Made by a program: the position numbers and the translations under genes. Below, piece by piece: positions 12,675-14,596 of a stretch of DNA of 64,000 nt. Every line of letters starts with the position of its first letter. Within the stretch, counting starts at the first letter, position 1. This DNA comes from Rhodospirillaceae bacterium (GTDB lineage Bacteria > Pseudomonadota > Gammaproteobacteria > Steroidobacterales > Rariloculaceae): contig PBDA01000044.1 of NCBI GenBank assembly GCA_002718345.1, positions 19,226-83,225 of the forward strand, given 5' to 3'. The notes beneath the pieces were generated by a model. The model worked only from the letters and a program-made list of their open reading frames with translations. It did not search any database and was not told the origin of the DNA.

Positions 12675-12931
12675 AATTATTTTTTATCCAACCAACAACT
12701 TGATTTAATTTTAGCTGCTTTAGTCAATCAAATTGAGAGTGATCCGTAATGTTATTGAGAACATCACCTCTCTAGAACAGCAGGGCAACTCAAGCCCAGA
12801 CACGTGAATTTTACATCAGGGAAAGGAAACTTGCTGGTTTCTGGAGTTGTGTGTTCCTAATAGAAAATAGAAATACAGATAAGTCTTAATAGCAAGATGC
12901 CCCAATTGCACTTGCTTCAAACCTTCCATCA

Positions 12932-13132
12932 TCATTCCTCAATGGCCGCAACAATGAATAGGACGAGCAGCACCCGCATGCCGTAGTAGCTGAAGCGCTC
13001 CCACATCTCCGTCATGAATAGCGTCACAAGACCGCGTGGATGTCCGAGCAGGTCGGCCTGTCCTTTTAGGCTGTCAGCGACGTCGGTGTTCCTCGAGAAA
13101 ATTTCTGCAGCAGCAAGGCGGTCAAACAACAA
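12932..13132 (-). pseudogene. 5' stump of a POT/PTR2 family peptide transporter (dtpA-like), truncated after about 60 codons
   Basis: The ORF encodes ...[30 protein letters not shown], which is the N-terminal POT signature. The reading frame then ends exactly where G+C content collapses (about 12935-12950). Its start overlaps the stop of the M24 gene, as in an operon. Confidence 0.7.
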
Positions 13133-14378
13133 TCATTTCGGGCTCGAGTGGGATACCCGTAATCTCTTCGGGACCGTCAGCCGTAATCAGAACGGTGCGT
13201 CCCATCATCAGGCCCGTGTCCTTATTCCAGTCTGGATCGTAGATATCCGACGCGGTCGCGAACACCATGTTCGGCTGAAACTCGATCGTTGGCATACGTG
13301 CGTAGGCATGCTTTTGCCACGAGCCAGCTGTGCCGCCGTACATGCAGCTCGGAAATTCAGGTGATGCCAAGCCGTGGCCGTGGAAACCGCATTCAACTGA
13401 GCCGAAGCCGGCATCGATGATGGGTTTGCGAAACGCGTGAACGGCGTCTTCGATGAGATTACCAGGCTTCATGGCCGCGATACCGCTCTTTTGAGTTTCG
13501 ACGCAGACTTCATGAATGCGTTGGTACTCGGGTTTGGGCTCACCGAGACAGACGGAAACTTCCGCACCCGTGAGGTAACCCTTGTAGCAGGCATGGTATT
13601 CGCACACGACGATGTCGCCCGCCTCGAGCACACGATGACTTGCCGGAGGCCGTTTGCCGTGGGGTGGCGGTACGGCTCCGGAGCTGATCCAGATCATGTC
13701 CTCTTCGCCACCGCCGTGCAGGTTGGCATGCAGCATGTCGGCATACACCTCGGTTTCACGCACGCCGGGGCGCGCCGATGCGATCAATGCATCTGCCATC
13801 GCTTTGGCCAATTCGGCGGATTTGCGTATGCACGCAACCTCCTCAGGTCCCTTGATGATGCGCGTTTGCTCGATGAGCCAACCGGCTTCGACGAATCGTG
13901 CGCTGTCGAGCGCCGATGCAATGTGCGAGAACTGTTGGAAGGGAACGGCCTCAGGGATAACACGTGGGCGCGTTTCGCCGAATCCGACGATACCGATTGC
14001 GGCGTTGGCGAATCCGCGGTCTCGCAGTGTCTCGACGATGTTGTTTGTCGTCGACTGACCGGATCGAACATCTTCGACCCAGCCGCCGGCAAGGGCGCCC
14101 CACTTCGTCACGTCATGTGGGAAGCCAGACCAGATAACCGGATCGCCATCTAGTGGGAAGAGCACACAGCCCGGCGCAACGCGACCTGTTAAATAGCGGT
14201 TGTTAGCGAGAGCGGATTCCCACTTTGATTCATTTCCCCAAACCAGCAGGCAGTCGAGTCCGGCCAGATCCATACGCCAGCGCACTTCGCGCCAGCGGCG
14301 GTCGCGCTCAGTTGCCGTTACGTCTGGCCACTCTCGGTCTGCCAGTTCCCCGACCATGTTGGCCTGTTCTGTTGCCAT
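13122..14378 (-). CDS. M24-family hydrolase, creatinase/Xaa-Pro peptidase-like, encoded in the high-GC patch
   Basis: It has a creatinase/prolidase-type N-terminal domain followed by a pita-bread fold region ([35 protein letters not shown]). The canonical metal-ligand Asp/His-Glu positions look substituted, as in creatinase-type members. The preferred start is the ATG at 14378, preceded by GGAGGAG; the track start at 14423 is also possible. Confidence 0.7.
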
Positions 14379-14431
14379 ACTTCCAGCTCCTCCATTCTTA
14401 TATAGCCGTTTTCTGCAAGACACCTAACAAA

Positions 14432-14596
14432 TTATCCAAAAATAACCCGGCCGTTATCTCGTAGTGTTGAGTCATAACACTGCATTCTGACTTCTGAAAA
14501 ATCCTCAACAGTTGCCGTACTTAGCCCATCATATCTTCCAGTTGCACAACCTGTTGCGATAATAATAAGGAAGGTTAGCAACAATATAAAGTTCAA
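14432..14596 (-). CDS. Possible small lipoprotein (54 aa, TTG start)
   Basis: My own translation is LNFILLLTFLIIIATGCATGRYDGLSTATVEDFSEVRMQCYDSTLRDNGRVIFG, with the lipobox IATGC. AAGAAAGGA lies about 10 nt upstream. It falls below the track length cutoff. Confidence 0.3.
   Translation of the reverse strand: MNFILLLTFLIIIATGCATGRYDGLSTATVEDFSEVRMQCYDSTLRDNGRVIFG

Follow-up and report, generated by a model that had tools for sequence, protein, structure and literature searches.

The subject of this analysis is a GC-rich patch on the minus strand of a 64,000-nt stretch of contig PBDA01000044.1 (the window, whose positions are used as coordinates throughout). The patch carries an intact gene for a hydrolase of the Peptidase_M24/creatinase fold, hereafter M24, followed by the truncated 5' part of a gene for a proton-dependent oligopeptide transporter (POT). 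Comparison with related contigs shows the patch to be a genuine horizontally acquired fragment, which was probably captured once from a GC-rich donor and then spread among AT-rich lineages. In kind this is an ordinary horizontal transfer, with an unusual distribution.

The patch stands out by its composition. In 200-nt sliding windows the GC content rises from 0.37-0.43 to 0.55-0.645 across ~12.9-14.4 kb and then falls to 0.31-0.39, and all remaining 1-kb bins of the 64 kb stay at or below 0.473. The initial annotation had reported a sharply bounded high-GC patch from hand counts of G+C on 60-nt lines (32/60 and 42/60 inside, 20/60 and 16/60 just outside); a recount gives exactly these values, the computed profile contains the step, and the pile-up of long overlapping open reading frames (ORFs) on both strands that accompanied the description is present in the ORF list. 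We set the limits of the patch by homology and not by GC content alone. Read on the minus strand, it starts at 14435 (left end), where the match to copies from a second genomic context (L002 and L019) breaks off, and stops at 12936 (right end), where the BLAST match to contigs with a GC-rich operon (L004 and L038) breaks off. The resulting 1,500 bp have a GC content of 57.8%, compared with a mean of 41.7% (standard deviation 2.2, maximum 47.9%) for other 1,500-nt windows and with 39.4% and 35.2% for the flanks immediately beside the patch.

Outside the cluster of patch copies, the closest relatives of the M24 protein in a search of 5.8 billion proteins are 93%, 89%, 86%, and 85% identical, and the contigs that carry them are uniformly GC-rich (61.7% for L038/L039, 60.9% for L004, 62.6% for L036, which is part of a 3.45-Mb contig, and 57% for L024/L025). 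In L004 and L038/L039, whose M24 proteins are 89-93% identical to that of the window, M24 is preceded by Amidohydro_3 and hemerythrin genes; a full-length POT gene comes after it in L004 (473 aa) and L038 (498 aa), and L039 stops shortly past M24. The alignment of the window to L004 and L038, at ~81% identity in DNA, opens shortly after the M24 start and closes at 12936. The GC content at third codon positions (GC3) of M24 is 0.64 in the patch, compared with 0.29-0.33 in the window's own genes and 0.76-0.80 in L004, L038, and L036. With the full operon present in contigs of ~62% GC and with this difference in GC3, the earlier proposal that the patch is foreign and comes from a GC-rich source is upheld. 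It had been added that closest homologues in equally AT-rich relatives would speak against a foreign origin; such homologues do exist, yet there the gene lies again in a GC-rich patch, and the foreign origin stands. The donor appears to be a GC-rich (~60%) organism with an Amidohydrolase-hemerythrin-M24-POT operon, most likely an uncultured gammaproteobacterium. The named relatives of the donor-type M24 and POT proteins are mostly uncultured Gammaproteobacteria, together with some old 'Rhodospirillaceae' labels of metagenome-assembled genomes (MAGs) and some Ca. Rariloculaceae.

The right end of the patch falls within the transporter gene. A 66-codon ORF (13132..12932) matches positions 2-39 of 475 of the TIGR00924 profile (E = 9e-15) and aligns by BLASTP to residues 2-51 of full-length POT proteins, with up to 92% identity. 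It contains only the region of the ExxERFxYY motif and the first transmembrane helix. Like the POT/PTR2 symporters (DtpA-D, TIGR00924) it has the N-terminal signature GHPRGL..., but with the first of ~12-14 transmembrane helices only and a deleted start codon it is not a transporter: at 51 residues and 54.6 bits, against a cut-off of 130.2, it is far from a full-length MFS protein of 12-14 helices. Homology to the GC-rich relatives halts at 12936, and the stop codon (12934..12932) lies just beyond this limit. The POT 5' fragment described initially is therefore real, its frame ends at the junction, and the donor fragment was cut mid-gene, as had been stated. By contrast, the start-to-stop overlap of M24 and POT that had been taken as a trait of the donor operon is absent from donor-type operons, where the two genes are 37-112 nt apart. 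In the sister copy of the patch, the M24 stop is followed by an in-frame TAG and then by POT's own ATG, ~40 nt past the M24 stop. Exactly 6 nt (TAGATG), comprising this in-frame stop and the POT ATG, are missing from the window copy, and as a result the spacer is fused to the stump in a spurious TTG-initiated ORF that overlaps the M24 stop. Between the two copies the stump differs by ~3% plus the indel, against 1% for M24; it is a decaying pseudogene that is not kept by selection.

The second context of the patch, hereafter type B, shows that the fragment is not confined to the window. The 90% cluster of the 418-aa protein has 50 members, and M24 proteins within 2-5 residues of the window's are found in more than 24 contigs and in MAGs labeled Gammaproteobacteria or Ca. 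Rariloculaceae (including the MAGs behind L019 and L023). Every type-B contig looked up has the order rplM-rpsI-[tRNA-Gln 5' half]-85-nt AT-rich spacer-patch-~45 nt-tRNA-Gln(CTG)-rpiA; these contigs have a GC content of ~43-45% with the same GC-rich step. The patch of the window is 97.9% identical in DNA to that of L001, and M24 is 99.0% identical between the window and type B, with 12 of 1257 nt differing (10 synonymous, 2 non-synonymous) and 2 of 418 residues. The L001 genes syntenic with 60.1-64.0 kb of the window, on the other hand, encode proteins that are 65-67% identical, with a saturated synonymous divergence (dS > 1.6), and the patch is thus far younger than the split of its hosts. 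This divergence contrast, M24 being 99% identical in hosts whose housekeeping proteins are 65-67% identical, refutes the idea that M24 is an ancestral, vertically inherited gene that resisted a genome-wide drift to low GC, to which we attach next to no probability. Such descent could be imagined because the donor-like and recipient lineages both have DUF6152 genes nearby, are both labeled Gammaproteobacteria or Ca. Rariloculaceae, and may be one clade; the sharp boundaries, the truncated neighbor gene, the different locus in the two lineages, and the absence of the gene from a syntenic sister contig (L028) all speak against it.

The two contexts have the left terminus in common, ATAATTTGTT(A/G)GGTGTCTTGCAG, to within ±2 nt, as well as the identical POT truncation and 84 substitutions that are derived with respect to L004, L038, and L036. 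Among these derived changes, 62 are GC-to-AT and 13 AT-to-GC (25:9 and 15:5 on control branches), which implies that the patch has spent time in AT-rich genomes. The 'recent' acquisition of the initial annotation thus holds as far as foreignness is concerned, while its recency has to be qualified. Since the two copies separated they have accumulated 10-11 substitutions, every one of them GC-to-AT, a pattern that fits ongoing amelioration in AT-rich hosts. Each copy also has private defects, namely the 6-nt deletion in the window and, in type B, a shorter stump (~38 codons) with a premature TGA, so that neither copy can be the parent of the other. The fragment could in principle have been taken up independently by two AT-rich lineages from the same GC-rich donor population; a comparison of both loci found no common flanking sequence, and the right ends differ by ~34 nt. 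We nevertheless judge this very improbable, given the same mid-gene truncation, the same left terminus, and the shared, mostly GC-to-AT substitutions, and also because no GC-rich contig among the 5.8 billion proteins is nearer to the patch than 93% in amino acids or 81% in nucleotides.

Type-B sublineages provide a further measure of mobility. Those ~4-5% apart (L001 versus L019, L002, and L003) have 0.08-0.15 synonymous-difference codons per codon in rplM, rpsI, COQ7, purE, and other genes, compared with 0.005-0.017 in M24, and the tract of low divergence has the same extent as the insert. At the left edge of the patch, an indel of 13 nt groups L001 with L003 and, on the other side, L002 with L019 and the window, whereas the flanks pair L002 with L003; this conflict indicates that the patch has been exchanged independently of its surroundings. 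The presence of the same patch at two loci thus points to a laterally spreading unit and not to a one-off insertion. The ratio of non-synonymous to synonymous divergence (dN/dS) between patch copies of M24 is 0.05-0.15 (0.06 at dS = 0.035), which shows M24 to be under strong purifying selection, apparently as the sole part of the patch kept functional.

A chimeric assembly join had been considered initially as an alternative to acquisition, and a mis-binned contaminant would have the same consequence. The window does come from an uncultured, metagenome-derived genome, and three short contigs (L010, L013, and L014) break within the tRNA gene downstream of the patch. Contigs retrieved because they encode exactly the same glyoxalase-like and TonB-receptor proteins as the flanks, however, reproduce the junctions in different samples and with different assemblers (MEGAHIT k119 and k127, a SPAdes NODE contig, Tara scaffolds, and two GenBank metagenome records). 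Both junctions are spanned by L005, L006/L015, L007/L016, and L008, the right one also by L009 and L011, and the left one by L017; the assemblies concerned are independent, number at least 7, and agree with the window at 99.8-100% identity. An internal insert of 1.5 kb would in addition require two coincident joins, and the patch displays lineage-specific GC-to-AT decay together with purifying selection. An artifact of assembly or binning can hence be given practically no weight.

The patch was said to lie near a tRNA gene, and indeed the stump is followed on its own strand, after 261 nt, by a tRNA-Met(CAT) gene. Nothing homologous to the spacer in between occurs in the donors or the second context, apart from its last ~45 nt (12675-12720), which are ~72% identical to the 45 nt before the type-B tRNA-Gln (L001:7838-7883), a score reached in 0 of 2000 shuffles. 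The pattern of this pre-tRNA similarity, …AAAAT.AAATCA..A.TTGTTG…ATA.AAAAATAATT, has no standard sigma-70 spacing. We rejected this segment as a part of the mobile unit, since ~72% corresponds to the divergence of the hosts and not to the 98-99% identity of the patch copies; an upstream element of tRNA genes that is typical of the lineage is more likely. At the opposite end, the stop codon (TAA) of a small ORF (14596..14432) is made by the first bases of the patch. If the patch is removed in silico, GGA TGA would result and the protein of the small ORF would end in the same way, as could be the case if the patch was simply inserted at a GGA microhomology.

The surroundings of this tRNA gene vary between relatives. 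In L028, from a sister species whose shared genes are 72-77% identical in DNA to those of the window, the order is glyoxalase-DUF6152-RecQ-tRNA-Met-AhpC, with AhpC 150 bp upstream of the tRNA (L028:5960-6560), and a 4.7-kb segment of the window that includes the patch is missing. The comparison with sister genomes that had been suggested initially therefore confirms the absence of the patch from L028 but not an empty interval, with AhpC at this place and other content on both sides. The contig of a 99.7% identical strain (L012:2250-2419) diverges exactly at the 5' end of the tRNA (12675) and has a different D-loop; the 81-nt tail of L012 past the tRNA has no match to anything. The 5' side of tRNA-Met is thus a variable spot, and the locus is a hot spot of variation on either side, L028 having DUF6152 and RecQ on the 3' side. 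A search for an empty site via close homologues of the glyoxalase was not successful, L028 having other content on both sides of the tRNA and the P0123 group another synteny.

Neither locus yielded a mobility gene in the regions annotated. As the initial annotation had remarked, there is no integrase, transposase, or flanking direct repeat: none of these enzymes is found among the Pfam-annotated genes at 5.5-22.9 kb, the repeat search of the window around the patch gave only short pairs of low identity, and an 8-nt direct repeat, TTGGATAA (12684-12691 and 14432-14439), was discarded together with ATAATT hexamers as not above chance in shuffles. The ends of the patch have no terminal inverted repeat. 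A displaced fragment of tRNA-Met was sought beside the patch, where the 4.7-kb segment ends on its far side, and in the whole 64 kb, and is absent from all of them; the only known RNA family at 12.3-14.8 kb is tRNA. The 21-kb second-context loci contain neither an integrase (PF00589) nor another recombinase. No relative of M24 above 33% identity was found on plasmids or phages, and none in IMG/VR. An insertion sequence, a miniature inverted-repeat transposable element, and a mobile insertion cassette were accordingly dismissed, with no terminal inverted repeats and no target-site duplication above chance.

In type B, the insert interrupts a tRNA gene. The canonical tRNA-Gln was identified by an exact search for an intact gene with the 'upstream' 5' half, which returned at least 120 metagenome contigs; nearly all have the order rplM-rpsI-tRNA-Gln, with rpiA on the opposite strand where the contig reaches far enough. 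The half tRNA of type B agrees with the canonical 5' half at 37/37 positions, and its spacing from rpsI is the canonical one. In the intact tRNA-Gln of type B, a canonical 3' half, spaced from rpiA as in the canonical locus, is combined with a variant 5' half that has G7, C19, and a compensatory D-stem change from C12-G23 to A12-T23. The ancestral tRNA-Gln is thus interrupted by a 1.6-kb segment that has a direct repeat on either side (33/37 identical), the repeat reaching as far as the anticodon loop. Neither variant of the 5' half is present in viral contigs. An extra tRNA-Gln-like copy was also observed after rpsI, upstream of the intact gene, in L073:2040-2360, L081:1400-1730, and L083:3940-4270. 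It has a conserved hairpin-rich insertion of ~85 nt in the T-loop (…GGTTCGA|CAAAATCGCC…GGGCGAGGGCCAGGAYGGCCCGAGTCA|ATCC…), receives no tRNA call from ARAGORN, and could be a disrupted gene, an intron-like insert, or a tRNA-derived RNA.

Taken together, these data can be accommodated by the following scenario. A piece of the donor operon was cut ~57 nt upstream of M24 and within POT codon ~51, and would have been joined into AT-rich DNA in a single capture. The fragment has then spread laterally among AT-rich marine gammaproteobacterial lineages and is now present at two unrelated tRNA-proximal sites, one 261 nt upstream of tRNA-Met and the other within rpsI-tRNA-Gln-rpiA. In the window, the insertion between the small ORF and the tRNA would be due to illegitimate recombination, of the end-joining or microhomology type and without a recombinase of its own, which is most likely the best fit for this site; in the second context, the tRNA-Gln could have been an anchor for homology-facilitated illegitimate recombination. 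Both processes reportedly create small genomic islets or variable segments (de Vries & Wackernagel 2002; Prudhomme et al. 2002). In the survey of Touzain et al. (2010, PMC2884548), variable segments were over-represented upstream of genes for tRNA and rRNA, and the patch resembles such small islets in being less than 4 kb of foreign DNA without mobility genes, cut regardless of gene boundaries, located upstream of an RNA gene, and free of significant flanking repeats in the window. It differs from them in its recurrence: one segment, with its left end unchanged, is present at two loci that are unrelated, in lineages of roughly family-level divergence. For the window copy, furthermore, no homologous anchor is identifiable.

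Several observations weigh against this scenario. The left end is the same to ±2 nt in two unrelated contexts, which random illegitimate joins do not predict and which hints at a defined element end. The 37-nt tRNA-Gln direct repeat (33/37) around the type-B insert has the geometry of site-specific islands in tRNA genes (tDNA islands). No empty-site allele of the window locus was recovered, so that the mode of joining in the window is a matter of inference. The nearest sampled GC-rich relatives are at dS > 1, meaning that the true donor is unsampled, and part of the apparent amelioration could reflect a donor with a lower GC3: the native GC3 of L024 and L025 is 0.64, yet their proteins are 85% identical.

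The first two of these points would be explained if the patch were the cargo of a discrete, non-autonomous, tRNA-targeting unit, a mini-island or cassette with defined ends that is mobilized in trans. This is the sole reading that accounts for the left terminus shared by both contexts. Both insertions are directly 5' of, or within, a tRNA gene on the same strand, and the type-B tRNA-Gln is split after the anticodon loop, with its 5' half left by rpsI and a variant 5' half on the canonical 3' half by rpiA. A regenerated tDNA with a displaced fragment, as found in L001 and other type-B contigs, is the geometry of tyrosine-integrase islands in the Islander catalogue, in which 159 of 3,919 tDNA islands (~4%) have 5' fragments and anticodon-centered crossovers are common (Hudson, Lau & Williams 2015, PMC4383910). 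The type-B insert is like these islands in splitting the tRNA-Gln at the anticodon loop, regenerating the gene, and leaving a correctly oriented displaced fragment, but unlike them in being only 1.6 kb long and without an integrase. The confinement of the low-divergence tract to the type-B insert, the incongruence of patch alleles with their flanks, and the match of GTTAGGT at the left end to the integron core GTTRRRY also suit a cassette.

On the other hand, no integrase, transposase, terminal inverted repeat, or attC-like structure was found at the loci searched, and the integrase that marks an Islander tDNA island is absent from 5.5-22.9 kb of the window as from the 21-kb type-B loci. The window copy, 261 nt from its tRNA, is also unlike tDNA islands (PMC4383910) in having no displaced fragment of tRNA-Met in the 64 kb. 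The pieces that flank the patch are not common to the two contexts, which again departs from such islands (PMC4383910): the right ends are ~34 nt apart, the 85-nt spacer and the 45-nt pre-tRNA segment of type B are not shared with the window at patch-level identity, and the 8-nt flanking repeat is at chance level. Given the extra damaged tRNA-Gln-like copies, the half tRNA-Gln may predate the patch. An integron cassette was rejected: GTTAGGT is present at the left end, but an inverse core and an imperfect palindrome are both missing from the 3' end, and no integron integrase is nearby. We therefore regard a mobilized cassette as unlikely, though deserving of attention, and its more specific form, a previously undescribed integrase-less cassette of ~1.5-1.8 kb that sits at the 5' side of tRNA genes and is moved by a recombinase encoded elsewhere, as somewhat more doubtful still. 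A single capture followed by lateral spread of the fragment is the reading that we retain.

Turning to the gene that the patch has preserved, M24 is, as first described, one intact gene with its own GGAGGAG ribosome-binding site (Table 1). Its product belongs to the Peptidase_M24/creatinase-prolidase fold, with hidden Markov models for both domains above the gathering threshold: PF00557 (Peptidase_M24) at E = 4e-30 and 105.5 bits (cut-off 23) over profile positions 1-208 of 208, and PF01321 (Creatinase_N) at 22.5 bits (cut-off 22). The AlphaFold model, with a pLDDT of 86.5, has Foldseek neighbors at E values of 1e-25 to 1e-20 and TM scores of 0.68-0.85. Nearest in fold is the ectoine hydrolase EutD/DoeA, followed by prolidases, creatinases, and DddP, all at ~20% identity. 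Although DoeA/EutD is the best structural neighbor, the identity is 20-21%, and the scores are 65.0 bits against 613 (TIGR02993) and 63.8 against 575 (NF038259) for the ectoine hydrolase equivalogs. The Xaa-Pro dipeptidase PepQ (NF040821) gives 65.4 bits against a cut-off of 630, and creatinases are weak matches in searches of the PDB (E about 1e-8). With every NCBIfam equivalog model far below its cut-off, an assignment of the substrate was rejected.

The predicted active site is also divergent. M24 metallopeptidases (prolidase, aminopeptidase P, and MetAP) have five metal ligands, Asp, Asp, His, Glu, and Glu. In the alignment to prolidase 3q6d, the two canonical Asp correspond to E260 and G271 of the M24 protein and the His is retained, while the two Glu positions would be occupied by Ala and Gly according to a by-eye alignment to the Pfam consensus; the canonical five-ligand set is not found in this protein. 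The residues conserved across its own family are E260, H262, E273, E329, H333, E341, and D378. The protein thus shares with EutD/DoeA, PepQ, and creatinase the two-domain architecture (PF01321 and PF00557) with a creatinase-type N-domain, but differs from them by its ~20% identity, its own set of conserved residues, and the replacement of both metal-binding Asp. It is predicted to be a cytoplasmic two-domain 'pita-bread' hydrolase of an uncharacterized subfamily with a non-canonical active site. The composition of the donor operon (amidohydrolase, hemerythrin, and peptide transporter) suggests small peptides or amides as substrates.

Some further features of the locus and its relatives were observed (Table 1). 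An intrinsic terminator at 14661-14691 on the minus strand (13-bp stem and T-run) ends the transcript of the TonB-dependent receptor upstream of the small ORF and the patch. Because this terminator is strong, M24 probably needs its own promoter; the single sigma-70-like match lies within the small ORF, at 14590-14562. The receptor itself (14723-16873, minus strand), within the segment missing from L028, has long Glu/His-rich low-complexity inserts (…HHDEDEEEEEEH…) and an exact 45-nt repeat (15830-15874 and 16010-16054). In the GC-rich relatives, a conserved motif GACTG(A/G)TGGAC(T/A)TGTAC is located ~35 nt upstream of the M24 start (L004:3740-3810, L038:7930-8000, L036:9930-10000, and L024:9930-10000). 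It is possibly an operator, and the left end of the patch (ATAATTTGTTAGG) may be a degraded counterpart of it. DUF6152 genes recur near M24 (~5549-8100 in the window, L038:3282-3671, L036:8333-8707, and L026:2086-2454), a recurrence hinting at a single broad clade that would include donor and recipient and have accessory gene sets in common. The MAG of the window is labeled 'Rhodospirillaceae bacterium' (CMM56_… tags), and the relatives and second-context hosts are labeled Gammaproteobacteria or Ca. Rariloculaceae. The alphaproteobacterial label looks doubtful, and the rplM-rpsI-tRNA-Gln-rpiA synteny also fits the Gammaproteobacteria/Ca. Rariloculaceae group.

Table 1. Features of the GC-rich patch and its immediate surroundings in the 64,000-nt window
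Feature	Position	Strand	Basis
GC-rich patch: leader, M24 gene, intergenic remnant, and POT stump	12936..14435	-	Homology, composition
AT-rich leader, 57 nt, moves with the patch, starts ATAATTTGTTAGGTG	14379..14435	-	Alignments
GGAGGAG ribosome-binding site, 8 nt upstream of the M24 ATG	14387..14393	-	Sequence reading
M24/creatinase-fold hydrolase gene, intact, 418 aa (MBH98320.1 in the public MAG)	13122..14378	-	PF00557, PF01321
Remnant of the donor M24-POT spacer, with the 6-nt deletion at its 3' edge	13088..13121	-	Alignment with L001, L003, L004
POT 5' stump, residues 2-51, pseudogene fragment	12936..13087	-	TIGR00924, BLASTP
AT-rich spacer from stump to tRNA, 261 nt	12675..12935	-	Comparison with donors and second context
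tRNA-Met (anticodon CAT), same strand, downstream of the patch	12598..12674	-	ARAGORN, Rfam
Lipoprotein-like ORF, 54 aa, abuts the patch	14432..14596	-	ORF list; no family match
4.7-kb segment missing from L028: spacer, patch, small ORF, TonB-dependent receptor, and 89-aa ORF	12675..17358		BLAST of L028 against the window, gene maps

The patch is a clean, well-bounded case of horizontal gene transfer and a useful positive control for composition-based detection; it also illustrates that a composition step in a MAG need not mean a chimera. One gene and its truncated neighbor have moved nearly unchanged between lineages whose core proteins are ~65% identical, and are found beside different tRNA genes. 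The tRNA-Gln context is a naturally occurring case of a very small insert that lacks an integrase and yet, from the 5' side, splits a tRNA gene and restores it. Should the doubtful integrase-less cassette prove to be true, it would regenerate the tRNA with its own 5' half and move between distantly related marine Gammaproteobacteria, and it would explain at once the identical left terminus, the tRNA association at both loci, and the low-divergence tract limited to the patch. For the hosts, the low dN/dS of M24 (0.06) and its spread across lineages suggest that the protein confers something useful in the open ocean, which, along with its non-canonical active site, makes this M24-fold hydrolase worth characterizing.

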